The position numbers were made by a program, and so were the translations under genes. This document shows positions 3,869 through 57,761 of a DNA stretch of 64,000 nucleotides, piece by piece. The DNA comes from Candidatus Micrarchaeota archaeon. Lineage in GTDB: Archaea > Micrarchaeota > Micrarchaeia > Norongarragalinales > Norongarragalinaceae. The stretch covers positions 65,989 through 129,988 of the forward strand of contig JACPGT010000005.1 in the NCBI GenBank assembly GCA_016188965.1, given 5' to 3'. Numbering within the stretch: the stretch's first letter is position 1; every line of letters starts with the position of its first letter. A model generated the notes under the pieces. The model was not told the DNA's origin. It saw only the letters and a list, made by a program, of their open reading frames with translations, and searched no databases.

Positions 3869-5392
3869 TTAGAACGGCACGACGATTCCTTTTTGCTTCA
3901 ACGCGTCCCGGAACTCACCCATGATTGCATCCAGGCCGGACTGCGTCTTGGACTCGAAACGCAGCGAAATCTTGGCTTCCGAATTCGACGCGCGCACCAG
4001 TCCCCAGCCATCGGAAAACAAGACTTTCGCGCCGTCAAGCTGAAGCACCTCGTGTCGGGCCTTGAAACCGTCGGCGAGCTGCCGGACTACGTCGAACTTG
4101 CGCTCGTCCGGTACGTCCAGGCGATACTCGCGCGACGAGACGTATTTCGGCAATGAGGCGACTTGGTTGGACAGCGCGCCGGATTCGCGGATGATTTCCA
4201 GCACCTGGCGCGCCGCGTACAGCGACTCGGACAGCCACGGCTGCGCGCCGTCCAGGAAGAAAAAGTGCCCGGACATCTCGCCGGCCAACCTGGCGTCCTT
4301 CGAAAAGAGCACGTCTTCGATGAGCGTGCGGCCCGTGGGCGACCACACCGCGGTTCCGCCCAACGCCTTGATTTCATCTTCCACGGCCTGCGAGCACTTG
4401 ATTTCCACGATGACGCGCTCGGACGGATTGCGTGCAAGGAAGCGTCGGGAAAAAAGGACGAGCAGTTGGTCCGGCGCCACGATGCGGCCTTTTTCGTCCA
4501 CGGCACCCACGCGGTCACCGTCGCCGTCGAACATCAGACCCACGTGCGCCCGATGCGTCAGGACCGCGGCTGACAAGTCCGTATAGTTGTCCGGGTCCGC
4601 TGGGTCCGGCAAATGCACGGCAAACGGCTTGGACGCGTCGCAGTGCAGTTCGATCACGTCAACGCCCAAGGAGCGGAACAAAACGGGAGCGAAGAGCGAC
4701 GAGACGCCGTTGCCGCAGTCCAGCACAACCCGGATGCCGGATAAATCCGGCGCGCCTTGACGCAAAGCATCCAGGTATACGGCGCGGATGTCGCGCGATT
4801 CAAGAGTGCCAGCGCCGGAGGAAAAACGGTCCTGGATGGCCAGATCGCGCACGCGCCGCACATGCTCGCCGCCGGCGCTCTTGCCGTCGTACGTGAACTT
4901 GACGCCGTTGTACTTCGGCGGGTTGTGCGACGCCGTGATGGCCGCCCCGCCGGTGGTCTTGAGGAAAGAATTGGCAAAGTAGATTTCCGGAGTGGTGCAC
5001 ACGCCGATGTCCGTCACGTCGCAACCCACGGCCTGCAGGCCTCGGATGAATGCGTCGGCATAGGCCGGGGAAGACGGGCGGTTGTCGCGTCCCACCACGC
5101 AGGAAGATTTCGAGCCGGAGCGTTCCTGAAGGTATGAACCGAAGGCCTGGCCAATGCGAAAATATACGGAGTCGTCCAGGTCCTGGCCCACGTAGCCGCG
5201 CACGTCGTACTCGCGGAAGATGCCCGGCGGAACCGCAGGGGGGAGCGACCCCCCTTCAGTTTCACGGTTATCACAAATCCGGATGGATTTGTGTGAGCCA
5301 CACAATTTCCCGCTGGAAATTGTGCTGTCCTCCGGATTCCCCCCCAACGAGCGCGGTGAATTGGATTGTGGATTTACTCGAATTTCAGGCAT
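3869..5392 (-). CDS. Phosphoglucomutase/phosphomannomutase-family phosphohexomutase
   Basis: Active-site TASHNPPKYNGVKF, Mg site FDGDGDRVG, and a conserved N-terminus beginning at GIFREYDVRG. The first ~55 codons overlap hairpin repeats, so the true start is uncertain. Confidence 0.85.
   Translation of the reverse strand: MPEIRVNPQSNSPRSLGGNPEDSTISSGKLCGSHKSIRICDNRETEGGSLPPAVPPGIFREYDVRGYVGQDLDDSVYFRIGQAFGSYLQERSGSKSSCVVGRDNRPSSPAYADAFIRGLQAVGCDVTDIGVCTTPEIYFANSFLKTTGGAAITASHNPPKYNGVKFTYDGKSAGGEHVRRVRDLAIQDRFSSGAGTLESRDIRAVYLDALRQGAPDLSGIRVVLDCGNGVSSLFAPVLFRSLGVDVIELHCDASKPFAVHLPDPADPDNYTDLSAAVLTHRAHVGLMFDGDGDRVGAVDEKGRIVAPDQLLVLFSRRFLARNPSERVIVEIKCSQAVEDEIKALGGTAVWSPTGRTLIEDVLFSKDARLAGEMSGHFFFLDGAQPWLSESLYAARQVLEIIRESGALSNQVASLPKYVSSREYRLDVPDERKFDVVRQLADGFKARHEVLQLDGAKVLFSDGWGLVRASNSEAKISLRFESKTQSGLDAIMGEFRDALKQKGIVVPF
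5237..5328 (-). repeat. Partial hairpin repeat (three hairpins related to the inner modules of copy C)
   Basis: CACAAATCC-GGAT-GGATTTGTG and CCACACAATTTCC-CGCT-GGAAATTGTGCTGT parallel CACATAAGTTC-AACG-GAACTTGTG and CCACACAAATTGC-CGAA-GCAATTTGTGCTGT of copy C. A GGGGGG-AGCGA-CCCCCC hairpin is also present. Confidence 0.65.
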
Positions 5393-6762: not shown

Positions 6763-7848
6763 ATGGCAGATGATCATGGTCACGGCGGAAGCCACGACGC
6801 CGGACACGGCGGTTCTCACGGACACGGAGGCCATGCCAAAGGCGGAAGCCATGGCGGCGTGGGCCGGCGCGAACCGCTCATCTTCATGCTCCTATTGGGC
6901 GGCATGCTTCTGATTCCCGTCGCCTTGCTGTTCGTATTCAAACTGCCGCTGGCCCTGGCCGTCAGCATCGTCCTGGTCCTGTTGGCCGCCGCGGTGCTCG
7001 CGCCGCGAATCCAGGAAGTCAAGGAGTACGAACGCGGCGTGCAATTCGACTTCGGCCGCTACAAAAAGACCTTGACGCCGGGATGGTATTGGATCCTGCC
7101 GCTGTTCCAGAAAGTCGAACTGGTCGACATGCGCACCCAGACCATCGACATCCCGCCGCAGGAAGTCATCACCAAAGAAGACATCGCTATTACCATCGAC
7201 GCCATCGCGTACTACCGCATCGTAGATCCCAAGAAGGCCATCGTGGAAGTCAAGGACGTCCGCGGACCGCTGGAACACGTCCTGCACGGCGAAATCACCA
7301 CCCAAATCGGCAAGATTCCGCTCCAGGACGTACTGGAAAAACTCGACGAAATCAACCAGCACCTGCACCACCAACTCCAACTGGTCGAACAGGACTGGGG
7401 CATCCATGTGTCCAACGTCGAAATCACGCACGTCAAGCTGCCCTCCGAACTGGAAGCGGCGTTCCGCAAGAAGCAGGAAGCACTCGAATACAAGGAAAAG
7501 CTCGAAACCGAAAGCCGCGCCAGAAGCGTCGCCCTGCGCATCCTCACCGAAGCGACCGAAGCCATGGGCGAGCGGACGATGACCTACCTCTACATGGAGA
7601 CGCTCAAGCGCGTCGCCGACGGCCGCGCCTCCAAAATCATCCTCCCCATGGAACTGACCCAGTTGGCCCACGCCTTAAGCGCGCAGGTCAAAGCCCAAGG
7701 CGGGCAGGTGGATGAAGAAAAACTCGCCGCGAGCCTGGTCGGCGCATACCTGAAAACCCAAAAACAGGCCGCCACGACGACCAAGACCACCCGCGTCCAA
7801 GTCGACGCCGAAACGGAAAAACCCGGCCGCGCACCCCAAGCCGGCTAA
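6763..7848 (+). CDS. SPFH/band-7 (stomatin/prohibitin-like) membrane protein with His/Gly-rich N-terminus
   Basis: A TM helix is followed by PLFQKVELVDMRTQTIDIPPQEVITKEDIAITIDAIAYYRIVDP. The N-terminus is MADDHGHGGSHDAGHGGSHGHGGHAKGGSHGG. An ATTTAAAT box lies about 27 nt upstream. Confidence 0.85.
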   Translation: MADDHGHGGSHDAGHGGSHGHGGHAKGGSHGGVGRREPLIFMLLLGGMLLIPVALLFVFKLPLALAVSIVLVLLAAAVLAPRIQEVKEYERGVQFDFGRYKKTLTPGWYWILPLFQKVELVDMRTQTIDIPPQEVITKEDIAITIDAIAYYRIVDPKKAIVEVKDVRGPLEHVLHGEITTQIGKIPLQDVLEKLDEINQHLHHQLQLVEQDWGIHVSNVEITHVKLPSELEAAFRKKQEALEYKEKLETESRARSVALRILTEATEAMGERTMTYLYMETLKRVADGRASKIILPMELTQLAHALSAQVKAQGGQVDEEKLAASLVGAYLKTQKQAATTTKTTRVQVDAETEKPGRAPQAG

Positions 7849-31864: not shown

Positions 31865-32070
31865 TTACAGCAAACCAAGAAAGTAACCCGACTCAATACT
31901 CCTGGTTTCTTGCAAATCTCCACGATTTGCAAGGTCTTGCGGGTTGCGATCCGCAAGGCCACATAAGTTCAACGGAACTTGTGATGCCACACAAATTGCC
32001 GAAGCAATTTGTGCTGTGCGGCCTATCAAGACCGACTTAATCGTCGTGAAATTTGTCAGTCTTGCTATAG
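31865..32070 (-). repeat. Modular hairpin repeat element, copy C (expanded, six hairpins)
   Basis: The reverse complement starts CTATAGCAAGACTGAC... and ends ...CTTGGTTTGCTGTAAG. Four extra hairpins are inserted between the two found in copy A. Confidence 0.8.
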
Positions 32071-32123: not shown

Positions 32124-33116
32124 CTACCACTGCAACGATCCGCCAGTCTGATACTCGGTGACGCGCGTCTCGAAAAAGTTCTTCTCTTTCGGCAAATCCG
32201 TCGTTTGGCTCATCCAGGGGAACGGATTCTCGCGGTTGTACACCTTCGGCAAATTCAAGCGCTGGAGGCGGCGGTCGGCGATGTGCTCGACGTACTTCTT
32301 GAACTCCTTGGCGTTGATGCCCAACAAACCCTGCGGGCAGGCGTCGTCCGCGTAATTCTGCTCGAGGATCACGGCCTTCTTGATCAAGTCCACCACTTCG
32401 TCCTGGAATTCCTGCGTCCAGACCTGCGGAAACTCCGCCTTGATGGTGTTGATCAAATCGCAGCCGAACGCCAAATGCAGCGATTCGTCGCGCATGATGT
32501 ACTCGAACTGCTCGCCCACGCCGATCATCTTGCCCTGCCGCTTCAAAGCCAGCATCATGGCAAAGCCGGCGTAAAAGAAGATGCCTTCCATGATGACGTA
32601 AAAGCCGATGAGGTCGCGGAGGAACTTCTGGATGTTCTCGTTGCCGTTCGTCGAAAAATGCGGGTCGAAGATGGATGAGGTCAGTTGCACCACGAAGTCG
32701 TCCTTCATCTTGATCGACGGGATGGACTGGTACATCGTGTAGATCTCCTCGGGGTCCAGGCCAAGGGAATCACAGCAATAGATGAACGTATCCGTATGCA
32801 CCGCTTCCTCGTATGCTTGCCGCAAGAGGTACTGGCGGGACTCTGGGTTGGACACGTGGTTGTAGACGGCCAGTACGATGTTGTTCGCCGTCAGGCTTTC
32901 GGCCGTCGAGAAGAAGCCGAGGTTCCATAGGATCATGCGCCGCTCGGACTCCGAAAGCACCGCCGGATTCTTCCACTGCTCGACGTCCTTCTGCATGGAC
33001 ACTTCCTCGGGCGTCCAATTGTTCGCCACGCCGGCCTTGTAGTGCTCACGCGCCCAGAGATACGTCATGGGCAGGATCTTGTTCGGATCGGTCTTGGGGT
33101 TGTTGATGATGCTCAT
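32124..33116 (-). CDS. nrdB: Class I ribonucleotide reductase beta subunit (R2)
   Basis: Di-iron ligand blocks EEAVH, EGIFFYAGF and RDESLHLAF. Lies immediately downstream of nrdA. Confidence 0.9.
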   Translation of the reverse strand: MSIINNPKTDPNKILPMTYLWAREHYKAGVANNWTPEEVSMQKDVEQWKNPAVLSESERRMILWNLGFFSTAESLTANNIVLAVYNHVSNPESRQYLLRQAYEEAVHTDTFIYCCDSLGLDPEEIYTMYQSIPSIKMKDDFVVQLTSSIFDPHFSTNGNENIQKFLRDLIGFYVIMEGIFFYAGFAMMLALKRQGKMIGVGEQFEYIMRDESLHLAFGCDLINTIKAEFPQVWTQEFQDEVVDLIKKAVILEQNYADDACPQGLLGINAKEFKKYVEHIADRRLQRLNLPKVYNRENPFPWMSQTTDLPKEKNFFETRVTEYQTGGSLQW

Positions 33117-33136
33117 ATCGTGGGTTCACCGTTTTG

Positions 33137-36022
33137 CTATTGACAGGCCTCGCACGTCGGGTCGTCAATCAAGCACACTTTCGGCCCGGATGACGCCATG
33201 CTGCTGGAAGGCGCCGCCGCGGCCTGCGCCACCGCCGCTTCGGCAATCGCCTGCGCCGTCGGAGCGGATGCGGCGACGGCGTCCTGCGTGCGTTTCTGCG
33301 TGAAGCCGAACTTCTCGGCATCCAGCGTCGACTTTTCGATCTGGCTGGCCGCCAAACTACGCAAGTAATACGTCGTCTTCAAACCGAGCAGCCACGCGTA
33401 GGCGTACACGTCGTTCAGGCGCTTGCCCGAGAGGCCCTTCAGAAAGACGTTCAGGCTTTGGCTCTGGTCAATCCACTTGCCGCGGTAGGCCGCCATCTTG
33501 ACCATGGTCTCGGCATCCACGTCGAAGGCTTCCTTGTACTTGGCCTTGAGTTTCTCCGGAACGCCCGGAACCGCTGCGACGTTGCCGTCGTGGTACTTCA
33601 TCTGTTCCAGCATCTCCTGGCCCCACAAGCCCAGCTTCTTGAGGTCGTCGATAAGGTACGAGTTGACCACCGTGAACTCGCCGGAGATGTTGGCCTTGAC
33701 GTACATGTTCTTGTAAATGGGCTCGATGGACGGGTAGCAACCGGAGATGTTCGAAATCGTAGCCGTGGGCGCGATGGCCATGGTGTTGCTGTTGCGCATG
33801 CCGAACTGCCGTACGTGCGCGCGCACCGGCGTCCAATCCAAGCGGGCCGTGCGAGGCACGTCGATCTTCAAGCCACGTTCTTTTTCCAGCAAGTCGACCG
33901 TGTCGACCGGAAAGAGTCCGCGATCCCACTTGGAGCCCGGGTACGTCTCGTACGGTCCACGCTCTTTGGCCAGTTCCGACGAAGACAGGATGGCGTAGTA
34001 CGACACCAACTCCATGCTGTAATCGGCGAACTCCAGCGCCTCAAGCGAGTCGAACGCGTAATCCATCTTGAAAAGCGCGTCCTGGAACCCCATGATACCC
34101 AGGCCGATCGGGCGGTGGCGCATGTTCGATGTTTTGGCCTCCAGCGTAGGGTAGTAGTTGACGTCTACCACGTTGTCCAGCATCCGGATGGCACAACGCA
34201 CCGTCTGCGCCAGCAGCTCGGCATCCAGTTTACCGTCCACGATGTGACGTTCGAGGTTGACCGAGCCTAAGTTGCACACCGCCGTCTCCTCGGCCGACGT
34301 GTTCAGCGTGATTTCCGTGCAGAGGTTCGAGCTGTGCACCACGCCCACATGGTCCTGCGGCGAGCGCACGTTGCAGGGATCCTTGAACGTGATCCACGGA
34401 TGGCCCGTCTCGAAAAGCGACGTCAGCATCTTGCGCCACAGCTTCTGGGCCGAAACGAGTTTGTGCTTCTTCATCGAGCCGGCACGCGCCCGCTCCTCGT
34501 ACTCTTCGTACTTCGTCTCGAAAGCGCGGCCGTACAAATGGTGCAGTTCAGGCACTTCCTCCGGCGAGAACAACGTCCAGGACTCGTCCTTCAGCACGCG
34601 CTTCATGAATAAATCAGGAATCCAATTGGCCGTGTTCATGTCATGCGTGCGCCGGCGCTCATCGCCGGTGTTCTTGCGCAAATCCAAAAAGTCCTCGATG
34701 TCCAAATGCCACGTCTCGAGGTACGCGCACGTGGCGCCGCGGCGTTTTCCGCTGCGGTTGATGGCCACCGTCACGTCGTTGGCGATCTTGAGGAAGGGGA
34801 TGACGCCCTGGCTTTCCACGCCCGTGCTCTTGATCCACGAGCCGGTGGCGCGGATGTTGCTCCAGTCGTTGCCCAATCCACCGGACCATTTCGACAATTG
34901 GGCGTTGTCGCCGATGCACTTGAAGATGTGCGTCAAGTCATCCGTGACCGTGGTCAAATAGCAGGACGACAGTTGCGGGTGCGCCGTACCGGAGTGGAAG
35001 AGCGTCGGCGTGGACGGCACGAAGCGCAAACTGGAAATCATCTCGTAGAATTCCAGGGCGCGCGCCGTGCGGTCGCCTTCCTCGTTGAGGCACAAACCCA
35101 TGGCTACGCGCATCCAGAACGACTGGGGCAGTTCGCGGCGTTGCTCGTCCCACTTCATGAGGTACCGGTCGTACAACGTCTGGATGCCCATGTAACGGAA
35201 CAGCGAGTCGCGCTCAAGCAGGAGGCCTTCCGAAAGCGACTTTAGGTCGAACTCCAGCAACCGCTCGTCCAGGGTGCCTTGCTTGACGCCGGCTTGGATG
35301 TTGCGCACGAACGACTCGCGGTACGCCACTTGTTGCAACCGCTCGTCCCGCAGCGACTGACCGCAGACTTCCTTGTAGAGCTTCTGCAAAAAGAGACGGG
35401 CCGAAACGAAGTCAAACCCGGGATCCTTCTCGATAAAAGCGATGGACGCCAAGACCATGGCTTTTTCAATTTCTTCCGTGCTCACGCCGTCGTAGATGTT
35501 CTTGACCACTTCGTTGATGACGGCATCCAAAGGCACGCCGGAAAACTCGCGCGAATGCCGCTCCAAGGTACCGCGCACCTTCTGCACGTCGAACAGGACC
35601 AGGCGACCGTCACGCTTGCGCACCGTCAACTTGCCCAAAAGCGACTTCTCGACGTTGCGCTTCTTCTCCTCCTCGCGTTCCTTCTGGCGCTTGGCACGGT
35701 ACAGGATGTACGCCTTGGCCACTTCATAGTGGCCGGCCTTGACCAAATGCTTCTCGACGATATCCTGGATGTTCTCCACGTTCGGATAGAAATCGATAAA
35801 GCGCGTTTGGACCTCACCGACGACGTCCTCCGTAAGCCGCTCCGCCGCCGCGGCCGGCAGGGGCGAACCGGAAGCGATGACGGCCTTGGCCACGGCGTTC
35901 TGGATGCGGCTGGCGTCGAACGGGACCACTTCGCCGTTGCGCTTGCACACCATTAATTTGCCATCCATATCCGCCGCCTCCCGTTTTTCCAAGAAATCCA
36001 AATCCCTTTGCTCTTTTTGCAA
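33137..36022 (-). CDS. nrdA: Class I ribonucleotide reductase alpha subunit with two ATP-cone domains
   Basis: ATP-cones VCKRNGEVVPFD and VRKRDGRLVLFD, the catalytic SSNLCTEI motif and a C-terminal CEAC pair. An alternative start exists at 35968. Confidence 0.9.
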   Translation of the reverse strand: MQKEQRDLDFLEKREAADMDGKLMVCKRNGEVVPFDASRIQNAVAKAVIASGSPLPAAAAERLTEDVVGEVQTRFIDFYPNVENIQDIVEKHLVKAGHYEVAKAYILYRAKRQKEREEEKKRNVEKSLLGKLTVRKRDGRLVLFDVQKVRGTLERHSREFSGVPLDAVINEVVKNIYDGVSTEEIEKAMVLASIAFIEKDPGFDFVSARLFLQKLYKEVCGQSLRDERLQQVAYRESFVRNIQAGVKQGTLDERLLEFDLKSLSEGLLLERDSLFRYMGIQTLYDRYLMKWDEQRRELPQSFWMRVAMGLCLNEEGDRTARALEFYEMISSLRFVPSTPTLFHSGTAHPQLSSCYLTTVTDDLTHIFKCIGDNAQLSKWSGGLGNDWSNIRATGSWIKSTGVESQGVIPFLKIANDVTVAINRSGKRRGATCAYLETWHLDIEDFLDLRKNTGDERRRTHDMNTANWIPDLFMKRVLKDESWTLFSPEEVPELHHLYGRAFETKYEEYEERARAGSMKKHKLVSAQKLWRKMLTSLFETGHPWITFKDPCNVRSPQDHVGVVHSSNLCTEITLNTSAEETAVCNLGSVNLERHIVDGKLDAELLAQTVRCAIRMLDNVVDVNYYPTLEAKTSNMRHRPIGLGIMGFQDALFKMDYAFDSLEALEFADYSMELVSYYAILSSSELAKERGPYETYPGSKWDRGLFPVDTVDLLEKERGLKIDVPRTARLDWTPVRAHVRQFGMRNSNTMAIAPTATISNISGCYPSIEPIYKNMYVKANISGEFTVVNSYLIDDLKKLGLWGQEMLEQMKYHDGNVAAVPGVPEKLKAKYKEAFDVDAETMVKMAAYRGKWIDQSQSLNVFLKGLSGKRLNDVYAYAWLLGLKTTYYLRSLAASQIEKSTLDAEKFGFTQKRTQDAVAASAPTAQAIAEAAVAQAAAAPSSSMASSGPKVCLIDDPTCEACQ

Positions 36023-46632: not shown

Positions 46633-47376
46633 ATGAAGAAAATTCCAGAGGGATGCAAAATGAGCAGGACGGATATTGATTACAACAAAAAAGCGATTCT
46701 AAAATACATGTTCAAACATGCGCGAAGCATCCGAAATCATCGATTTTCGGCAATGAACCTTAAGCGGGCCTACCTAGCGGGGGTAATTTCGGGCGATGGA
46801 AGAATCAGTTGTTTTCCTCCATTTCCTACAAAACACATGCGAACAACCGTGCTTATTTACAACCAGTCCATACCGTTTTTGAATTATCTTAAGGAAATGA
46901 TCTGCAAAGAATTTGGCGTTAACGGCAGAATTAGTCCAAAGAAAGGGGAAAATTGCTTTGAATTGGCCATTTACAGCCGAGCATTTTGGATCTATCTAGC
47001 GAGCAACGTAGACCTGCCACTTGACAAAAAATACCTTCAGGTTCCTCCGTCAATTCAAACAAAAAAACTGTTCAGAGAGTACCTGGCCGGATTGTTCGAT
47101 ACGGATGGATATTTGTCGTACACGTTCGGAATCATGCTATCGAAGCGCAATTTAGGTTACTTGAAAAAAATAAGTATGCTTTGTAGAAAATATTACGGGT
47201 TGCGTTTTGGAAAAATCTCGATAAACGAATTGAGGCAGAATGGAAAAACATATGGCAGAGTAATCATGCACCTCAGAAAAGCGGACGTCCGAGTATTCAT
47301 AAAAAATATACCCCTTCGGCATGAGAAATATATACCGCGCATAGCAAAGGTTCTGAGAGGGCCCGTCGTCGAATAA
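46633..47376 (+). CDS. LAGLIDADG homing endonuclease (double-motif)
   Basis: Two LAGLIDADG motifs, YLAGVISGDGRI and YLAGLFDTDGYL. The gene is visibly AT-richer than its surroundings. Confidence 0.8.
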   Translation: MKKIPEGCKMSRTDIDYNKKAILKYMFKHARSIRNHRFSAMNLKRAYLAGVISGDGRISCFPPFPTKHMRTTVLIYNQSIPFLNYLKEMICKEFGVNGRISPKKGENCFELAIYSRAFWIYLASNVDLPLDKKYLQVPPSIQTKKLFREYLAGLFDTDGYLSYTFGIMLSKRNLGYLKKISMLCRKYYGLRFGKISINELRQNGKTYGRVIMHLRKADVRVFIKNIPLRHEKYIPRIAKVLRGPVVE

Positions 47377-47498
47377 GCCTTTTCGTCCGACGAAGGGGCT
47401 TCGGCTGTGGTAAGACGTCGAAAGTACCTTAGGCAAGCTGAGGCACTTGCGGAACTTTTACACAGCGAAGATCGCCGGTTCGATTCCGGCCGGGCCCA
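47359..47498 (+). tRNA. tRNA-like gene, apparently disrupted by several short insertions (anticodon unassigned)
   Basis: A clean 3' portion: AGATC GCCGG TTCGATT CCGGC CGGGCCC A, followed by TTTT. The only complementary 5' acceptor strand, GGGCCCG, lies at 47359-47365, 140 nt upstream. D-loop-like GTGGTAAGA flanked by GACG/CGTC, and an AAAGT/ACTTT candidate anticodon stem. Confidence 0.45.
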
Positions 47499-47752
47499 TT
47501 TTGAGCAAAACCGCCGATACAACAACGCACGCGTTGTTGTCCGCTGGACTTGGCGGAGGCCAAGTCTTCGCGTCCTGCCGGGTACGTCGCCTAGCTATTT
47601 CGCTTTTCGGTCTACGTTTAATCCATACGCAGAAAAAGAAGCACAGCTCACTTCAATGCGAAAACCAACCATGAAAACCAAGAACCTCATCGCCCTTGCC
47701 GCCGCATTGGCTCTCACCGCCGGCCATTGTATACGTCACCCTGCCCTTCTTG

Positions 47753-49587: not shown

Positions 49588-49701
49588 GCCGCAGTAGCTC
49601 AGCCTGATCGCCGCAAATCTGTTTTTCTAGTTTACGGCGAGGCTTAGGAGAGCAATCGGCTGAAGACCGATATGCCGGGTGTTCAAATCACCCCTGCGGC
49701 A
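49588..49701 (+). tRNA. tRNA-Phe (GAA) with ~41-nt intron in the D-loop
   Basis: GCCGCAG TA GCTC AGCCTG[intron]GA GAGC A ATCGG CTGAAGA CCGAT ATGCC GGGTG TTCAAAT CACCC CTGCGGC A. The intron forms the TCGCCG/CGGCGA helix. A TTTAAATT box lies 30 nt upstream and a T-run follows downstream. Confidence 0.8.
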
Positions 49702-50243: not shown

Positions 50244-50341
50244 CTATAGCAAGACCGGCAAATTTCACGACGATTAGGCCGGTCTTGCTAGACACCAAAC
50301 CAAGACTATTTTGTCGGGTTACTTTCTTGGTTTGCTGTAAA
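50244..50341 (+). repeat. Modular hairpin repeat element, copy A (two hairpins)
   Basis: CTATAGCAAG-ACCGGC-loop-GCCGGT-CTTGCTAGACACC-AAACCAAG-loop(GTCGGGTTACTTTC)-CTTGGTTT-GCTGTAAA. Ends 13 nt before the start codon at 50355. Confidence 0.8.
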
Positions 50342-50354
50342 GGGGGTTTCGTGC

Positions 50355-50807
50355 ATGCGCACATTGGTTTACACTTTATTGGTCCTCGGTTTTCTCTTGG
50401 CAGGGTGCAGCACCCAACTGGCCCAACCGACGCCTGAACCAACCAGCCCGGCCGCAACCGCGAGCGCGACGGCCGAAACAAACACGAACGCCAACGCGGC
50501 CAACCCCGCTGCGACGCACTGCGTACAACTCGGGTACAGAAACGAAATCGTCGACACGCCGCAAGGCCAAAGCGGCACCTGCCGGTTTCCGGACAACTCC
50601 ACCTGCGACGACTGGAAGTTTTTCCGAGGAGAATGCGGCCAGGCGTTCAGTGCCTGCACGAAAAAGGGAGGAAAACTGGGCGCGGTCCTGATGGGACCGA
50701 ACGGGCCGGTGACGTCCAATTCGACGTGCCAATTCAACGACGGCACCATATGCGAAGAAAACGAGCTTGCCGACGGCACGTGCCAACCTGGACAACAAGT
50801 CGCATGA
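50355..50807 (+). CDS. Lipobox protein with two DUF333-like Cys-rich repeats
   Basis: LLAGC lipobox. NPAATHCVQLGY...GTCRFPDNSTCDDWKFFRGEC resembles the DUF333 pattern, and a second degenerate repeat follows. Confidence 0.7.
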   Translation: MRTLVYTLLVLGFLLAGCSTQLAQPTPEPTSPAATASATAETNTNANAANPAATHCVQLGYRNEIVDTPQGQSGTCRFPDNSTCDDWKFFRGECGQAFSACTKKGGKLGAVLMGPNGPVTSNSTCQFNDGTICEENELADGTCQPGQQVA

Positions 50808-50941: not shown

Positions 50942-53900
50942 TCAGCGGTCCAGCCGGAAAAAAGTGATGGAGTACGCCGGGAAAACGTAAGAAAAATTGG
51001 CCGAAACAGCGAGGGTGGATTCAAGGTAGTCCGTCTGGTCAATAGAGTCCTGCAACGCGTTGGCCTTCAAAGCGTATACGGAAGCGACGGGCAAAGGAAT
51101 GAAGTTTTTCAGCTGAATGGTTTGAACATGCGCCGCCGAGTCACGGTTGATAACCGCCAAGTACAACGACTGGCCGTCGGCCGAGACGCTGCTGACGGCG
51201 GTGAAGCGCGGCACGTCCGTGTTCGTCACGGCGTCATGGACCGTCAGCGAGTCGTACGCGACCGGCACCATGCGGCCACCCCAGCCAAAGTAGCGGGAAA
51301 ACGCCAGGAACGTCCGGCCATTGAGGTTGACCTTGGGCACGCCGGCGTAGTCGCCCACCAAGCCGGTGGCGAATTTTTCCTTGGGAGACGCGGCATTCCA
51401 GAAGAACAGCGACCCACCGTGCACTCCGTTTTCCAGCATGAACGCCAGCTCGGACGCCAAGTAAGCCGAGTCGATGAATCGGTCCGTTGCCGTGTACTTG
51501 AAATTGACCAGGATACGGTTGTACTCGTTGATCCAGATGGGAAAATCCGGATCGCCCACCGCGCGGCTAAGGTACTTCGAAGCCAACTGCTGCGCCTGCC
51601 GGAACCGGTACGAATCGGCATAGGCGGCGGCCATGGAACGCAACGGATAGTCCCGCACGCCGTCCTTGCCCGGATAGAGAAAATAATCGTGCACCGCCAT
51701 GCCCGCGACGAGGGACTGTTTGCCTTGCTCCGCGATGTACTGCAGAACGCGGTCCATGGAAAACGAGCCGGAGTTCTGCGTAGGCAAGATGCATTTGAGG
51801 CCGGTTTGGATGCGGCGGATGGACTCGCACAAGTCGACGAACCGGCGCGCGAAGCCCTCCTCGTTACCGACGTACTGCGCGTAGTACGGCTCGTTACCCA
51901 ACTCGACGTACCGCAACGAATACGGCGCCACGCGGCCCCGGGCAGCACGAAGGTTGGCATAGTTGACGCTACCGGAACCGTCCGCGGCCCGCAGATCCGT
52001 CACGGGCCAGCCCTGCGCAGTAATTTGCTGGGCCTTTGCCGCATAGTCCGCGTCCGCCGGCAACACGAGGTACTGGATCATGGCCGTGAGGCCTTCCACG
52101 CTTCCGTACTTGCGGAAAGAAGGAGGCAACGCATCGGTGGAGCAGCCGTACTTGATTTCGCAAGGATTCGGCAACTGGGGAACGAACTCGAAGTTGAGGC
52201 GCTCAGCAAGCGTGCCGTAATCATCCAGCGTCAGCACGTTGGCATCGAACCGGTACCGAACCTGTGCGTCGGCCGCATCCTGTGGCAGCGCGCCGGAATA
52301 CGTCGGACGCACCACGTACTCGTCGATCTTGAAGCGGTACGAGTCGGAACGTTGGCTAGCCGACGTGACCGATGCGCCCACGCTCTCTTCGTTCAGCGTG
52401 CCGAAGTAGGCATCTTTGGTGCGCAGCGCCGTGTCCGACGGGAACGTCGCGAGCACCGCCTGACCAACAAAGTTATCGTCCAGCCAGACTTTAGACGTCA
52501 AGTCGTTGAGAACGTCCACCCCATACCACCGGTCGAACGCCAGCGGCGCCGTCGTTACGGATTGAGCGAACCCCGGCGTGCCGAAGCGGAATTCCAGGCG
52601 GCGGTCCGGCAACAAATAAACGTGGAAGCGGCCGGTCTTCATGATGAACGCCTTGGATGCCACCGAAAAAGGCACGCTCGAAGAAAGCTGGATGTCAAAA
52701 CGCGTGTACAACGCCGCCTGGGGAAGCGAAAGTTCGCGACCGACTTCAGGAAACACGCGGTGAACCTGCGTCGTCGAGCCTGACACCTTAGTGTAGCTGA
52801 TCGAGTGCCGGTTGAGCCCTTGAGCAAAGGAAAGCGACGCGTCGAACCACTCCACACGGTAATAATTATCGCTGGCCGAGCCGTCGGCCTTGGATTCATA
52901 CCTCAAATCCATGTCCGGCAGCGGATATTGCAGTCGCCAGTTGAACTCCGGGAACGATTCATCGATCATCGGATTGGAAAGGCCGTTGGACCGCCGATAC
53001 TCCGACGGATCGAACATCCAGATGTTGCGCGGCGTGCCTGCGTCGGCCAGATGCATCCGCCACAGCGGCCGGTTCAGCGATGCGCCGGAAGGAACGGATG
53101 AGCCTGCCAATTCGGAAAAAATGGGAAAATCGTAATCCTGCACGCGGTCGGCCATCGAATTGCCGCCCAGCACGCCACGGTCCACATACGGCACCGACGT
53201 CTGTTGCGCGTCAATCAAAAGAACGCCGGCAATCGGGACCGGTGTCGCGCTCGGCGCGGCCGTTGCAGAAGGACGAGGCATTGGGCTGACGGACGGCAAT
53301 ACCGTGGGCAACGGAGGCATTACGGAAGGGACCGGAGGCAACAGCGGATACCAAGTGAAGTTTGCGTTGCGCGCATGCTCCAGTGCGAACGGGGCATAGA
53401 AGCCCGAACCGGGCCCGCCGCGGCACGAGCCGTCGGACCAACCCGGTTGTTTGATCCACACCAAGGCGTGCACGGAATCGTCGCCGGTCTGCGTCGTGAA
53501 CGGAACGCCGGCGCCGCGGCCCGACGGGTTGCACCAGATCCCGTCCGGATGCGGGCCTTGGCCGTTGCGCGACGTGTCGATGATGAACGGCTTGCCGCCC
53601 ACGCGGGCGGACATCTGCAAGCCGTACCGGATATTCTCATCCGTGTAGATGAAGTTAGCCACGTTCAAGGCAAAACCATCGGCTTCCGAAATGTCCAACT
53701 CGTTCAAACGCCGCGACATCTCGACCACGCCCACCCACCGCGGGTTGGCCGCGTCCACATACACGGCCGCGCCTTGGGCCTTGAGCACGCGGATGGCGTG
53801 GCGCATCAAGTCCCACCGCGTGGCAACCTCCGACGCATTCAGGCAACTGAGCGCCGCCGTGCCGTCCGGTTCCAACACCACGATGGCCTTGCGTCCGGCA

Positions 53901-54637
53901 AGGCTCGAAGCGATGCCTTCCACGTAAGCGCGGTATGCCGCCGGCGAGGCGAAGCCGCCGGCTGCCGCACCGCCGCAATCCCGCTTGGGCAAGCTATAAA
54001 TCACGATGAGCGGCACCTGGCCCTGCGTCGAAGCGTCGTCCAGAAGCGAATCGGCCCGCGCCCGCACGTCCGCCTCGTGTCCGGAAAACCAGATGGCCAC
54101 CGGTTGCGGCCACAGCTTGTCCAACTGCGCCGCATCCTCCGGACGGCTTTGGCGCCACGCGTCGGCCTGAAGACGGGTCGGAATCTGCGGGTCGACATAC
54201 AGACGGACGTTGGAAAAAGGATTGAACCGATCCGGTGCGGGCGTCACGCTGGGAGACGCAGAAGCCGTAGGTTCCGGCGCAGGCACCACGGAAGGCGCGG
54301 ACAGCGGAGGCGAAAGAGGGGCCGTCGGCGAGGCCGAGGATGAGGAAGCGGAAGGATAGGCTCCCCCGATGAACGACGGCGCGGGGGAAGGGGGCACAGA
54401 GGAAGCGGAGGGCGACACCGGCAACGGGACGTCCGTATCCGAAGACGGCGGATACGCCAGGGCGGTGGCGTCAGCCAAGGGCAGCACCTCGAATTCCGCA
54501 ATCGGAGTCGGAGTAACGAGGGACTGCGGAAAGACGACAAACCCGGCGGGGGATGCCGGAGTCAACGTCAGCCACAAACCAAGAAGCGCGATGCCGACGG
54601 CGAAGATCAACAACGCTTGACGATGACTCGGACGCAT
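50942..54637 (-). CDS. Secreted multidomain glycoside hydrolase: GH6 domain plus C-terminal clan GH-A-like (beta/alpha)8 domain
   Basis: Start at 54637, with GGAGGT 8 nt upstream. A signal/TM and P/S/T linker are followed by GH6 blocks PLIVIYSLPKRDCGGAAAGG, IVVLEPDG, IIDTSRNG and WIKQPGWSDG. The C-terminal region has YVELGNEPY and PIWINEYN, the acid/base and nucleophile motifs typical of clan GH-A. Confidence 0.85.
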   Translation of the reverse strand: MRPSHRQALLIFAVGIALLGLWLTLTPASPAGFVVFPQSLVTPTPIAEFEVLPLADATALAYPPSSDTDVPLPVSPSASSVPPSPAPSFIGGAYPSASSSSASPTAPLSPPLSAPSVVPAPEPTASASPSVTPAPDRFNPFSNVRLYVDPQIPTRLQADAWRQSRPEDAAQLDKLWPQPVAIWFSGHEADVRARADSLLDDASTQGQVPLIVIYSLPKRDCGGAAAGGFASPAAYRAYVEGIASSLAGRKAIVVLEPDGTAALSCLNASEVATRWDLMRHAIRVLKAQGAAVYVDAANPRWVGVVEMSRRLNELDISEADGFALNVANFIYTDENIRYGLQMSARVGGKPFIIDTSRNGQGPHPDGIWCNPSGRGAGVPFTTQTGDDSVHALVWIKQPGWSDGSCRGGPGSGFYAPFALEHARNANFTWYPLLPPVPSVMPPLPTVLPSVSPMPRPSATAAPSATPVPIAGVLLIDAQQTSVPYVDRGVLGGNSMADRVQDYDFPIFSELAGSSVPSGASLNRPLWRMHLADAGTPRNIWMFDPSEYRRSNGLSNPMIDESFPEFNWRLQYPLPDMDLRYESKADGSASDNYYRVEWFDASLSFAQGLNRHSISYTKVSGSTTQVHRVFPEVGRELSLPQAALYTRFDIQLSSSVPFSVASKAFIMKTGRFHVYLLPDRRLEFRFGTPGFAQSVTTAPLAFDRWYGVDVLNDLTSKVWLDDNFVGQAVLATFPSDTALRTKDAYFGTLNEESVGASVTSASQRSDSYRFKIDEYVVRPTYSGALPQDAADAQVRYRFDANVLTLDDYGTLAERLNFEFVPQLPNPCEIKYGCSTDALPPSFRKYGSVEGLTAMIQYLVLPADADYAAKAQQITAQGWPVTDLRAADGSGSVNYANLRAARGRVAPYSLRYVELGNEPYYAQYVGNEEGFARRFVDLCESIRRIQTGLKCILPTQNSGSFSMDRVLQYIAEQGKQSLVAGMAVHDYFLYPGKDGVRDYPLRSMAAAYADSYRFRQAQQLASKYLSRAVGDPDFPIWINEYNRILVNFKYTATDRFIDSAYLASELAFMLENGVHGGSLFFWNAASPKEKFATGLVGDYAGVPKVNLNGRTFLAFSRYFGWGGRMVPVAYDSLTVHDAVTNTDVPRFTAVSSVSADGQSLYLAVINRDSAAHVQTIQLKNFIPLPVASVYALKANALQDSIDQTDYLESTLAVSANFSYVFPAYSITFFRLDR

Positions 54638-54695
54638 GACGCCAAACCTCCACGACGAGGAAAAAAGCATCCGGCGGGCCGCATGCTGCCTGCGG

Positions 54696-54791
54696 TTATA
54701 GTCGACCACGAAAGTAACCCGACTTAAGAGTCGTGGTCGACTATCTAGCAAACGGCTCGAAAGTCTCGGCGGACTTTCGAGGTTTGCTATA
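54696..54791 (-). repeat. Modular hairpin repeat element, copy D
   Basis: The reverse complement reads TTATAGCAAAC-CTCGAAAGTC-loop-GACTTTCGAG-CC-GTTTGCTAGATAGTC-GACCACGA-loop(GTCGGGTTACTTT)-TCGTGGTC-GACTATAA. Lies 58 nt upstream of the glycosidase start. Confidence 0.75.
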
Positions 54792-54925
54792 ATCGACTGG
54801 ATGATTCAATGCCCCAACGGCAGTGGTGGCTGGAGCGGCTAATATTAAACCGGACGGCACGCCTTACGAAAACCAGTCGAAAAAACGGATGCGCTTACAA
54901 AAACGGACAAAAAAAAGAAAAGAAG

Positions 54926-54996
54926 TGCGACCGGCGGGAATCGAACCCGCGTATCGACCTTGGCAAGGTCGTATCATACCACTAGACCACGGTCGC
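54926..54996 (-). tRNA. tRNA-Gly (GCC)
   Basis: The reverse complement folds as GCGACCG TG GTCT AGTGGTA TGAT A CGACC TTGCCAA GGTCG ATAC GCGGG TTCGATT CCCGC CGGTCGC A. Confidence 0.9.
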
Positions 54997-55281: not shown

Positions 55282-55377
55282 CTATAGCAAGCCACGAAAG
55301 TTTCCCGGATGTATTCGTGGCTTGCTAGACACCAAGACTTGACAAATCGATTGCGACAGTTCAAGTCTTGCTGTAAA
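55282..55377 (+). repeat. Modular hairpin repeat element, copy B (two hairpins)
   Basis: Same scaffold as copy A with different, perfectly compensated stems (CCACGA/TCGTGG and AAGACTTGA/TCAAGTCTT). Confidence 0.8.
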
Positions 55378-56149
55378 ACAGCGCCAGGAATGTGCCGACC
55401 CACGCGCTAAGCATGGCGCCTACGGACGTGACCATACCGGCGGTGCCTTGGATCAGCACGTCGGCAAAGCCCGACGCGCCTTGTGGCTGCCCTTCAGTCT
55501 GAACTGACGCGTCGTCTAACGTGTTGAACACCGGGTTCAAAGTCGCGGATGCGTCGGTTGCACCCGATGGGGGGGTCGAACCGGAACCGGCGCTTGACGA
55601 GATCACGCTCGAACCGCCGGCGGACGAAGCGCCGAAAGCCACGTCAAAATCATACGGCACGCCGGATGCGCGCACTCGGTCGCGCAACGCGCTCCAATAT
55701 GCAGTCATGTGATCGGCAACCGTTTGGCGTTGTGCATCCGTTGCAGCGTCCGACCAGGCTTGTTTTTCCTCGGCTAATTCCAAACGCGCGTCGGCGACGA
55801 TCCCGGGGTCAAACCCGAGGCCGACCAAATCATCCAGGATGACCGATAAGCGGGCGAAGTGTTCTTGGACTATTTCCGACTCGCCGGAACCCACTCCGAC
55901 TGAAGTCGATTGACTCGTGCTGACTTGAGTTTGAGTGGACGAGTTGTCGCCGGTGCGGACGATGCTTACGGCCGATCCGCTGGCTCCTGAACCTTGCGTT
56001 GTTACCGAACCGGATGTCCGGATTGTGGCGTCGCTTGAAGCGGACGAGTCGACGGAAGCGGTGACGGCGGAAGATTGGGCAAATATCATGCCGGCCATCA
56101 TCGCCAAAATTATAGTCAAAGCCGCCAGGCGTCGTTCATGCGCGTCCAT
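55361..56149 (-). CDS. Secreted S/T/A-rich protein, distant member of the helical secreted family
   Basis: GGAGGTGATGGAAGATG start context and a signal/TM segment. Has the block FARLSVILDDLVGLGFDPGIVADARLELAEEKQAWSDAATDAQRQTVADHMTAYWSALRDRV and a C-terminal TM. Confidence 0.6.
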   Translation of the reverse strand: MDAHERRLAALTIILAMMAGMIFAQSSAVTASVDSSASSDATIRTSGSVTTQGSGASGSAVSIVRTGDNSSTQTQVSTSQSTSVGVGSGESEIVQEHFARLSVILDDLVGLGFDPGIVADARLELAEEKQAWSDAATDAQRQTVADHMTAYWSALRDRVRASGVPYDFDVAFGASSAGGSSVISSSAGSGSTPPSGATDASATLNPVFNTLDDASVQTEGQPQGASGFADVLIQGTAGMVTSVGAMLSAWVGTFLALFYSKT

Positions 56150-56279
56150 CTTCCATCACCTCCATTGGTCGTTGTTCCTCTTTGCCACGTTTCATCAATG
56201 AGATTTGAAAAAGCAAAAAGAAAGAAAGGGTCCGCCGACCCTGTTTGGATCGGCGGATTGGTCGGTTCCACGTCCTCCA

Positions 56280-57761
56280 CTATGCTCCGGGCGACGGACT
56301 CGGCGTGGCCGTTGGCTCGGGCGTCGGAGTCGCGGTCGGCTCCGGAGTGGGAGTCGCCGTAGGTTCCGGCGTTGGAGTCGGCGTCACCGTCGGCACAGGC
56401 GTCGGGCTGGCCGTCGGTTCCGGACTCGGAGTAGCCGTGGGAGCCGGTGTCGGCGTTGCGCTGGGAGTGGCCGCAGGCGTCGCAGTCGGCGTAGCCGTTG
56501 GTTCCGGCGTGGCTTCCTGACCTTCCGTCTCGACGTCCACGCTCACGCTGTTGTTGACAGTGGCCGAAGCGGTGCCGTTCAACGAGTCCACGAAGGCGTT
56601 GACCATCGTATTGATGTCTACGATGATCTGCGTCAGAGCGTCTCCGGATTCCGCACTCACCGACACGTCCGTACCGGTCGTGGCGCTGGCCGAACCGTTG
56701 TCCCCGCTGGCCGCGGCCGCGGCGTCACTGGACGCATCGACCGAGGCTGACGAGCCGCCGTTGGCGCTGGCCTCGACGTCGACCGACGTGTCAGCCGTTG
56801 CCGTGGCGGTGCCGTTCAACGCATTGACGATGGCCTGGACGAAGGTGTTGATATTGACGATGATGGTCGTCAAACCACCTTCTTCAGGTTCCGGCGTCGC
56901 ACTGGGAGTGGCCGTGGGCTCCGGACTCGGAGTAGCCGTCGGCTCCGGCGTCGCACTGGGCGTCGCTGTTGGTGTCGCAGACGGGGTAGCCGTCGGCGTG
57001 GCCGTCGGTTGGTTGGCCTCCGCTTGGGCCAATGCCTGCAGCAGCACGTTCAACTGCAACGTCAGCTGCTCCACCTGGGCCTGCAACTGGGCTACGGCCG
57101 TGGCCTTCGCATTGGAGTCGTCCGTCGCATTGACACCCGCTTGGGCCATGGCGTTCTGCTTAGCCAACAGGAAGAGCTTGACCTTGTCGCCGAAGTTCTT
57201 CCAGTAAATCTTCATGTCGGAAGTGACCTGGGCACGCGCGTCCGCATCCCCGGCCTCGACGAAGGCCTGGGCCTGCGAGTCCAATTTGATGCGGGCGTCC
57301 GCAATCATCTGCGGGTCCACGCCTTGGTCTTCCAGATCGTTCAGCATCACCTTGAGTTTGATGAACTCACGGGCGCTGGCCGACGCACTGGCTTCGCCGT
57401 TGCCGCTGGCCGAAGCTTGTGCATCCGTCTGAGCATTCACGGATTCTTTAATCGTTGCGTCGTCCGATTGCGCGTTGACGTCCACCGACGTGTCGCTGGA
57501 AACGGCCGCGTTAGCTGACGCGTCGCCGCCCAGAGCACTGGCCGTCGCGTTCACCACGCTACTGATGAACACCTGTATCTTCAGTACGACGTCACTCAAG
57601 GTACTGGTAACGCCGTCGATGACGACGTTTACGCTGGTATCCGCACTGGCCTGACTTGAGGCTTGCGAAACGGTCGCCGTTGTCTCGGCAACAAGCAAGC
57701 CCGACATCATGACCAGCGCCAGCATACCTAACCATGCCGTATTCGGCGCTGGTGTATTCAT
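56280..57761 (-). CDS. Secreted S/T/A-rich protein with TPEPTATP linkers and internal repeats
   Basis: A signal/TM segment. The block FIKLKVMLNDLEDQGVDPQMIADARIKLDSQAQAFVEAGDADARAQVTSDMKIYWKNFGDKV is homologous to the downstream gene. Three IIV-x-INT-x-V-x-A-x-V-x-x-LNGTA repeats and two T/P/E/A linker arrays. Confidence 0.65.
   Translation of the reverse strand: MNTPAPNTAWLGMLALVMMSGLLVAETTATVSQASSQASADTSVNVVIDGVTSTLSDVVLKIQVFISSVVNATASALGGDASANAAVSSDTSVDVNAQSDDATIKESVNAQTDAQASASGNGEASASASAREFIKLKVMLNDLEDQGVDPQMIADARIKLDSQAQAFVEAGDADARAQVTSDMKIYWKNFGDKVKLFLLAKQNAMAQAGVNATDDSNAKATAVAQLQAQVEQLTLQLNVLLQALAQAEANQPTATPTATPSATPTATPSATPEPTATPSPEPTATPSATPEPEEGGLTTIIVNINTFVQAIVNALNGTATATADTSVDVEASANGGSSASVDASSDAAAAASGDNGSASATTGTDVSVSAESGDALTQIIVDINTMVNAFVDSLNGTASATVNNSVSVDVETEGQEATPEPTATPTATPAATPSATPTPAPTATPSPEPTASPTPVPTVTPTPTPEPTATPTPEPTATPTPEPTATPSPSPGA

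Follow-up and report, generated by a model that had tools for sequence, protein, structure and literature searches.

Bacterial MITEs are shorter than 200 bp, with terminal inverted repeats (TIRs), TA termini, target-site duplications and folding into stem-loops (PMC2229807, PMC10969869). Correia elements carry promoters, and the presence of TA-flanked MITEs varies between strains (PMC2229807, PMC10969869). RUP has been linked to IS630 at TA targets, and an IS630-type enzyme is suspected for Correia elements (PMC2229807). In archaea, small non-autonomous repeats include SM1-SM4 of Sulfolobus and, in Methanocaldococcus jannaschii, palindromic repeats (Suyama et al., 2005, in PMC2229807); IS transposases are believed to move some of them, and others lie in frame within genes. 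IS200/IS605 elements are present in >65% of Micrarchaeota genomes (PMC13343696). The literature searched yielded no RAYT-REPIN system in archaea, and a limited search turned up no account of repeats like these from Micrarchaeota or other DPANN.

The hairpin family described here was studied in the window, by which we mean the whole 64,000-nt stretch of DNA that was analyzed. The window belongs to the genome of a Candidatus Micrarchaeota (DPANN). Its proteins are consistent with an archaeon (PCNA, class III signal peptides, an exosome Rrp4-like protein, DUF7343), and the nearest NrdB proteins carry Micrarchaeota annotation. In behavior, the family is closest to TA-flanked bacterial MITEs (Correia, RUP) together with REP/BIME/REPIN. 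Like Correia/NEMIS of Neisseria and RUP of S. pneumoniae, its members are ~100 bp long, intergenic and multicopy, have terminal inverted repeats and TA at both ends, fold into long stem-loops on both strands, have ends that can form promoter boxes for a neighboring gene, and are variably present (PMC2229807, PMC10969869). They differ from Correia and RUP in their archaeal host and in the promoter element that they imitate, a TATA box at -27 instead of the sigma-70 -10 box; moreover, each end is a perfect hairpin unit with a large conserved loop, and the tops of the stems differ among copies yet stay compensated. With REP/BIME/REPIN, the family shares short palindromic units with a conserved foot, inverted pairing into a copied unit, mosaic combination of modules, lineage-specific variants and a hairpin form that matters (PMC3116915, PMC3733652). 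In contrast to REP/REPIN (Proteobacteria, RAYT), the GTAG/CGTC tag is absent, the foot being TAGCAA, CAGCAA or TAGTAA, and the units are longer, with 18-19 nt loops and TA at both ends. Among the alternatives that an earlier note on this DNA had raised, a REP/BIME-like DNA repeat is the best fit.

The Sulfolobus and M. jannaschii repeats are likewise small, non-autonomous and archaeal, but the phylum differs (DPANN here) and the comparison draws on published descriptions; their reported in-frame insertions may be compared with a hairpin cluster inside a PMM ORF at 5238-5324. We know of no sequence relationship between those repeats and the present family. IS200/IS605 elements have asymmetric ends, whose left and right hairpins share a strand, and they insert beside a one-sided 4-5 nt target without duplication. 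The analogy with IS200/IS605 PATEs, also offered in the earlier note, breaks down on this symmetry, since the end units here are inverted and have TA on both sides; the likeness lies in the hairpins needed at element ends and in an IS family that is common in Micrarchaeota (PMC13343696).

Hairpin Elements of the Window

Copies A (50244-50341) and B (55282-55377), first described as sharing conserved junctions around fully paired stems, have the sequences claimed and the common scaffold CTATAGCAAG...CTTGCTAGACACC...GCTGTAAA. The inner stems differ between the copies and each pairs perfectly (first pair ACCGGC/GCCGGT in A vs CCACGA/TCGTGG in B; second pair AAACCAAG/CTTGGTTT vs AAGACTTGA/TCAAGTCTT). 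An exhaustive perfect-stem scan showed that perfect stems of 13-14 bp are the longest stem-loops of the 64 kb and that they lie at the loci originally listed. A unit covariance model found eight units in the window, confined to four of the five listed loci (31866-32069, 50245-50339, 54697-54791 and 55283-55375). Of the three copies that had been listed as related to A and B, those at 31865-32070 and 54696-54791 carry units, whereas 5237-5328 is without a TAGCAA-type unit (best 10.8 bits). It is instead a different short hairpin module, GCCACACAA-stem-tetraloop-stem-TTGTGCTGT, common to the interior of 31865-32070, with feet CACAAAT/ATTTGTG or CTTGCAA/TTGCAAG and loops of 4-5 nt.

The left unit of copy A (50245-50292, plus strand), of the beta type, is made up of TA, TAGCAAGACCGGC, the loop AAATTTCACGACGATTAG and GCCGGTCTTGCTA, and has a 13-bp perfect stem (model 73.4 bits, E 7.6e-17). 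Its right unit (50291-50339, minus strand), of the alpha type and inverted relative to the left one, consists of ACAGCAAACCAAGA, the loop AAGTAACCCGACAAAATAG and TCTTGGTTTGGTGT (43.6 bits). Copy A is sited between divergent genes, and the outer end of the right unit, GCTGT followed by AAAG, is 16 nt from the DUF333 ATG at 50355. In copy B, an alpha-prime unit on the left (55283-55329, plus strand; TAGCAAGCCACGAA, loop AGTTTCCCGGATGTA, TTCGTGGCTTGCTA; 61.1 bits) is joined to an inverted, divergent beta unit on the right (55330-55375, minus strand; ACAGCAAGACTTGA, loop, TCAAGTCTTGGTGT), for which the model score is weak (14.5 bits) and which overlaps the final codons of ORF 55361-56149 on the minus strand. 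The composite at 54697-54791 pairs an alpha unit with an unusual foot (54697-54745, plus strand; ATAGTCGACCACGA, AAGTAACCCGACTTAAGAG, TCGTGGTCGACTAT; 35.3 bits) with an inverted gamma unit (54744-54791, minus strand; TAGCAAAC-(CC/GG bulge)-CTCGAAAGTC..GACTTTCGAG-GTTTGCTA, terminal GCTATAAT; 25.7 bits). Two independent Logan contigs from different samples (L076, L077) both end inside this gamma hairpin, at the equivalent of ~54764; with two contigs terminating inside one hairpin, the repeats break assemblies. The long composite at 31866-32069, flanked by convergent genes for a 188-aa membrane protein and nrdB, has a degenerate alpha unit (31866-31914, plus strand) and a beta unit (32022-32069, minus strand), with four short hairpins in its interior (31909-31933, 31933-31960, 31960-31983 and 31990-32013).

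The short-hairpin cluster at 5238-5324 holds three hairpins of the other module and no TAGCAA unit: GGGGGG..CCCCCC at 5238-5254, CACAAATCC..GGATTTGTG at 5272-5293 and CACAATTTCC..GGAAATTGTG at 5301-5324. It lies between the NTP-transferase and PMM genes or within the 5′ end of the PMM ORF (3869-5392, minus strand), which crosses the three hairpins in frame and whose ATG overlaps the end of the NTP-transferase gene. PMM is 507 aa long in the window vs 434 aa in the metagenome-assembled genome JACQQD01 (L047 17651-20190). Neither ATG nor GTG offers a start between the cluster and the F-x-x-YD-x-RG motif conserved in PMM, and the sole in-frame TTG is inside a hairpin, so the short hairpins may be translated as an N-terminal extension. 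Hairpins also distort gene calls, as at the PMM start and at the end of the 262-aa ORF.

Several neighboring features deserve mention in their own right. At 49590-49698 (plus strand) is a tRNA-Phe(GAA)-like gene with an apparent ~35 nt insertion after the 5′ part of the D-arm, reading successively GCCGCAGTAGCTCAGCCTGA, tcgccgcaaatctgtttttctagtttacggcgaggc and TTAGGAGAGC..CTGAAGA..GGGTGTTCAAATCACCC..CTGCGGCA; Rfam matches its positions 7-64 only (35 bits) and ARAGORN missed it. The insertion may be a non-canonical archaeal tRNA intron. A free-standing LAGLIDADG_3 ORF (46633-47376, plus strand; E 1.3e-9) is followed after ~100 nt by a tRNA-like 3′ half (47473-47505, plus strand) with T-arm CGCCGGTTCGATTCCGGC and acceptor strand GGGCCCA; this is 83% complementary to part of tRNA-Gly, has no Rfam match, and might belong to a split or intron-containing tRNA or else be a fragment of one. 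The ORF at 50942-54670 (minus strand) encodes a 1242-aa secreted protein with a GH6 (cellulase-type) domain and no close homologue among 5.8 billion proteins, its best partial match being a GH6 protein of Candidatus Paceibacterota, a CPR bacterium (43% over 23% of the length). The class I ribonucleotide reductase at 32124-36022 (minus strand) has a small subunit that shares ~80% identity with many proteins of bacteria (Acidobacteria, Thermoanaerobaculia, Dependentiae), which suggests cross-domain transfer of the nrdAB operon. Finally, 24-nt periodic direct repeats (56266-57032; nine copies, 60-72% identity) lie in ORF 56280-57761 (minus strand), which encodes a low-complexity protein of 493 aa that weakly matches a PARP-like repeat, and which adjoins the serine/threonine-rich 262-aa protein, itself without a Pfam family.

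Unit Anatomy and Composite Architecture

When the window, two MAGs and ~20 confirmed metagenome contigs are compared, all TAGCAA-type hairpins prove to be versions of one ~48-nt unit. Its order is TA, the foot [T/C]AGCAA, 4-8 variable compensated bp, an asymmetric loop of 18-19 nt, the complement, TTGCT[A/G] and TA. The loops are conserved (GAAAGTAACCCGAC, AAATTTCACGACGAwTAG): the alpha loop is GAAAGTAACCCGAC..AG, the alpha-prime loop GAAAGTTTCCCGAC, and the beta loop AAATTTCACGACGAATAG, which aligns with alpha-prime save for small indels, while the gamma loop has turned self-complementary (AAAGTTTCCCGAAACTTT). In the window, GAAAGTAACCCGAC has three exact occurrences (31879+, 50326-, 54710+) and AAATTTCACGACGATTA has two, vs 0.12 expected by chance. 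Outside the window, loop conservation is partly ascertainment, because the collection scans demanded the exact alpha loop motif.

In every composite that the model resolves, within the window and at 12 or more loci elsewhere, a sense unit comes first and an antisense unit second (outside the window, L004, L005, L006, L010, L012, L015, L017 (twice), L019, L020 and L036). L022 runs sense, antisense, sense, antisense, and L003 and L021 are lone units. With the left unit sense and the right unit antisense, a composite has dyad symmetry with two inverted ends. The copied element is usually this inverted pair, of 92-95 bp, and sometimes encloses extra short hairpins; elements are non-coding, range from 47 to 206 bp, and amount to four composites in 64 kb. 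Terminal inverted repeats are present both as the outer 14 bp or more ([T/C]AGCAA...) and as the inverted whole units. TA occupies the outer 5′ end in 20/20 aligned sequences (columns 2-3 invariant), and almost all 3′ ends read GCT[A/G] followed by TA. This TA may represent a target-site duplication; being self-complementary, it could equally belong to the inverted repeat. In some gamma units (L005, L020, L025), a helix at the base closes the structure around two or three hairpins. Past the right-hand TA of the alpha-gamma composite, the sequence TAATnGnnTnnATGATTCAA is common to window 54790-54809 and the non-syntenic L006 5796-5815 (JACQQD01) and absent beyond other alpha-gamma copies; it could mark a longer element variant or be a coincidence.

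Folding and Covariation

Folded as RNA, copies A and B form two hairpins apiece (-38.7 to -45.2 kcal/mol, z -6.0 to -8.2), and they are similarly extreme as DNA (z -7.0 to -8.6); 0/200 shuffles folded as well, and the hairpins are very stable on either strand. Among 20 alpha units, 95.1% of cells are paired and double changes occur in 8/14 pairs; the corresponding figures for 15 beta and alpha-prime units are 96.4% and 10/13 pairs. The alpha-unit level of covariation was reached by 0/500 shuffles, and slid controls pair in just 26-42%. The foot itself covaries, from TAGCAAG/CTTGCTA to TAGTAAG/CTTACTA and from TAGCAA/TTGCTA to TGGCAA/TTGCCA. Cells that are not Watson-Crick comprise 6 G·U and 20 other mismatches, about the neutral share from random single changes, and no strand bias was found when G·U was set against A·C mismatches. 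The stem variant ATCCCC appears three times in JACQQD01, and stem variants look lineage-specific.

When tabulated, the covariation that had been claimed from two copies holds up, with 95-96% of cells paired, far beyond chance. The loops, and not the junctions alone, are conserved. Compensated stems do not by themselves establish selection on structure, since they can also arise when quasi-palindromes undergo template switching or when a master element has been copied recently.

Dispersal Among Micrarchaeota

Pattern scans and the covariance model show that the family reaches beyond the window, into other Micrarchaeota genomes and metagenomes. An exact-pattern scan of species-representative genomes gave matches in two groundwater Candidatus Micrarchaeota MAGs, JACQQD01 and JACROM01; two Paenibacillus matches, within coding repeats without a hairpin, were set aside as chance. 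A metagenome scan returned 30 matches, from which ~20 contigs were confirmed and 10 matches without hairpins were rejected as chance. Copies are found at unrelated loci in at least three genomes and ~20 metagenome contigs. IMG/VR scans with the alpha and beta patterns gave 28 loci, of which the covariance model confirmed none, so no viral carrier was found there.

Apart from the element itself, the MAG loci and the window have no DNA similarity. The alpha-beta composite at window 50245-50339 is 97.9% identical over 95 nt to that at L005 4008-4102 (JACQQD01), and the proteins of the window and JACQQD01 are 88% (NrdB) and 57% (DUF333) identical. Two identical composites stand at separate loci (L018, L030) of contig Ga0209726_10000318. 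Around nrdB, gene order is kept among relatives apart from L044, where other genes lie downstream, and the space downstream of nrdB measures 295 nt in the window, 90 nt in L040 (NrdB 95%) and 38 nt in L046 (88%). The window's 31866-32069 element is missing from this syntenic site in L040, L044 and L046; the covariance model detected no unit in 65 kb of these three, nor in L047 (~85 kb of relatives). In L047 (JACQQD01), 4 nt are shared by the NTP-transferase and PMM genes, between which the window has hairpins. Among the nrdB relatives no clean empty allele was found, and their flanks are too diverged for a duplication to be read. Exact-protein look-ups with DUF333 and the 262-aa protein retrieved the same strain alone, with identical alleles; every population sample of the window strain has the same alleles of copies A and B, and no recent movement was seen. 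DUF333 has one homologue, with 57% identity and a different gene context.

Element Ends and the Promoters of Apparently Leaderless Genes

In each of the six window genes inspected (ATGs at 6763, 10968, 14439, 25636, 29823 and 41045), a T/A-rich box occupies ~-33 to -24 relative to the ATG and there is no room for a leader; from the position of this box, leaderless transcripts are apparently the rule in the window genome. At L003, L006 and L020, the ATG of an ORF of 280-497 aa lies exactly 27 nt outside the alpha foot (GCTAT followed by AAAA...), which puts TATAAAA at -30 to -24. In the window, the CTAT end at 54697 is 27 nt from the minus-strand ATG that opens the 1242-aa GH6 ORF, a spacing that is ambiguous in that the source gene call begins at a later ATG (1231 aa). 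The 27-nt register is thus present in 3-4 of ~46 element ends.

An element end with its flanking TA reads GCTATAA(A/T), so insertion into a promoter would keep or recreate a TATA box in register for a leaderless neighbor, and the element end may be used as a promoter. If the element and one TA are removed from the sequence, the flanks would rejoin as TATA-like TTTATTAAA, AAATTAAAAG and CATTAAAAC. Either elements would insert into the TA of the TATA box, or only those insertions that keep an in-register TATA box would survive.

A Family of Probably Mobile DNA Elements

The family probably consists of small non-autonomous mobile DNA elements (MITE/REPIN-like) that are moved in trans and inserted at TA. 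A TA duplication and a cognate transposase apart, it behaved as a MITE in the tests on terminal inverted repeats and on size, non-coding character, copy number, dispersal and variable presence. Mobile DNA is favored over an RNA gene by the sense-antisense order of the composites, the TA at their ends, the G·U share near neutrality, the close identity of copies at unrelated loci and the relatives without elements at syntenic sites. What is observed is how the units are built and covary, how copies are scattered, that syntenic sites lack them, and the 27-nt register; transposition, the enzyme, a target duplication of TA and promoter use of the end are inferred. A transposase encoded elsewhere in the genome would recognize both symmetric ends, and insertion would take place at TA dinucleotides of AT-rich intergenic DNA, often in the TATA box itself. 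The symmetric ends, TA flanks and CAG/TAG termini favor a putative DDE enzyme of the IS630/Tc1-mariner type; an HUH Y1 enzyme of the RAYT/IS200 kind would be the alternative, kept in play by the preserved hairpin formation, the REPIN-like pairing and the frequency of IS200/IS605 in Micrarchaeota. Stem complementarity might be kept because the enzyme uses the hairpin or cruciform form, or because the palindrome arms are corrected by template switching; movement as a plain double-strand cut-and-paste MITE does not explain the 95-96% complementarity of variable stem positions. The earlier remark that the window has no transposase or recombinase is borne out by the absence of any such domain in its ~50 ORFs and of any Y1_Tnp match, and neither an autonomous copy nor a transposase was found in the window or in the annotated neighborhoods of L040, L044, L046 and L047.

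There is a smaller but appreciable chance that the family is a REPIN-like replicator in Archaea, that is, vertically persisting hairpin pairs whose foot and loop are read by one domesticated transposase and which double as TATA-box/insulator cassettes. Such a replicator would explain the lineage-specific compensated stems.

Alternative Explanations

The elements might instead be REP-like sequences used by the host, with hairpins kept for a transcript or DNA function and mobility secondary or ancient, which we consider unlikely as the main account. Possible roles are protection of upstream mRNA 3′ ends, a block to read-through among densely packed genes, and delivery of a TATA box to a downstream leaderless gene; bacterial REP and Correia elements have comparable roles (PMC10969869). 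At L006, L003, L020 and window 54697, the element does sit between co-directional genes, right after the upstream gene or tRNA, with its end at -31 to -24 of the downstream ATG. The stability of the hairpins on both strands speaks for the same reading, and the lineage-specific stem variants suggest long residence with compensatory change. Weighing against it are the mere 3-4 of ~46 element ends in the 27-nt register, the position of copy A between divergent genes, the overlap of copy B with an ORF end, and relatives without elements at the same sites. Archaeal termination, moreover, is not known to depend on hairpins (cf. PMC7515710). A host role of this REP-like kind is compatible with mobility, and the two may coexist.

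A structured RNA family, whether small RNA genes or cis-regulatory UTR elements with loops read by a protein or RNA, is improbable. It would account for the strong covariation, with changes on both sides in 8/14 and 10/13 pairs, for the conserved loops, and for the gamma basal helix, which in enclosing two or three hairpins (L005, L020, L025) resembles a multi-branch RNA. Yet the inverted arrangement means that any transcript has one unit sense and its partner antisense, G·U pairs show no enrichment, the small hairpins have tetraloops that match no stable RNA motif, orientation to flanking genes varies, and there is neither conservation at syntenic loci nor an Rfam match. The folded-RNA alternative that the earlier note had left standing is disfavored by dyad symmetry, by G·U pairs that are not in excess, and by relatives that have no elements at syntenic sites. 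The note's failure to recognize the family was warranted, as the elements have no Rfam match (best 11-18 bits, E above 0.6). With gathering and permissive thresholds, Rfam found in the window a tRNA-Gly (54925-54996, minus strand), a partial tRNA (49639-49694) and nothing else. Readings of the loops as C/D-box, H/ACA, K-turn or hammerhead were rejected, with no box motifs by eye and no Rfam match.

It is very improbable that the elements are duplex binding sites of a regulator or chromatin protein, in which the loop box and the TAGCAA/TTGCTA half-sites would label a regulon or serve as activating sites upstream of promoters. This would fit the conserved foot hexamers, the dyad symmetry and the 14-bp box that is conserved ahead of some leaderless genes (~-45 to -65), but binding to double-stranded DNA gives no reason for self-complementary spacer arms, the flanking genes are functionally unrelated (GH6, DUF333, nrdB, tRNA-Gly, PMM), and the sites are missing in relatives. 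Least credible of all is an archaeal integron with attC-like structure-specific recombination sites: conserved feet below complementary stems that vary freely are the hallmark of attC sites, and three composites do lie within 5 kb among lineage-specific genes (50.2-55.4 kb), but the feet misfit the R''/R' consensus RYYYAAC/GTTRRRY, the stems are perfect and without extrahelical bases, the flanking genes form no co-directional cassette array, and no integrase domain occurs among the window ORFs.

Implications for Micrarchaeota

DPANN genomes are very small and thought to be streamlined, so one repeat family occupying 4-5 loci within 64 kb is a considerable burden. Should the elements be mobile, they would show between which Micrarchaeota DNA is exchanged, a 95-nt element being 98% identical across deeply diverged genomes, and they would offer a handle on the mobilizing enzyme. 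If the REPIN-like reading were true, they would be portable TATA-box and insulator cassettes for leaderless genes in compact genomes. Where element ends fall in TATA register, they provide a natural experiment on the ways in which archaeal promoters tolerate mobile DNA or borrow it, a parallel to the Correia elements of Neisseria.
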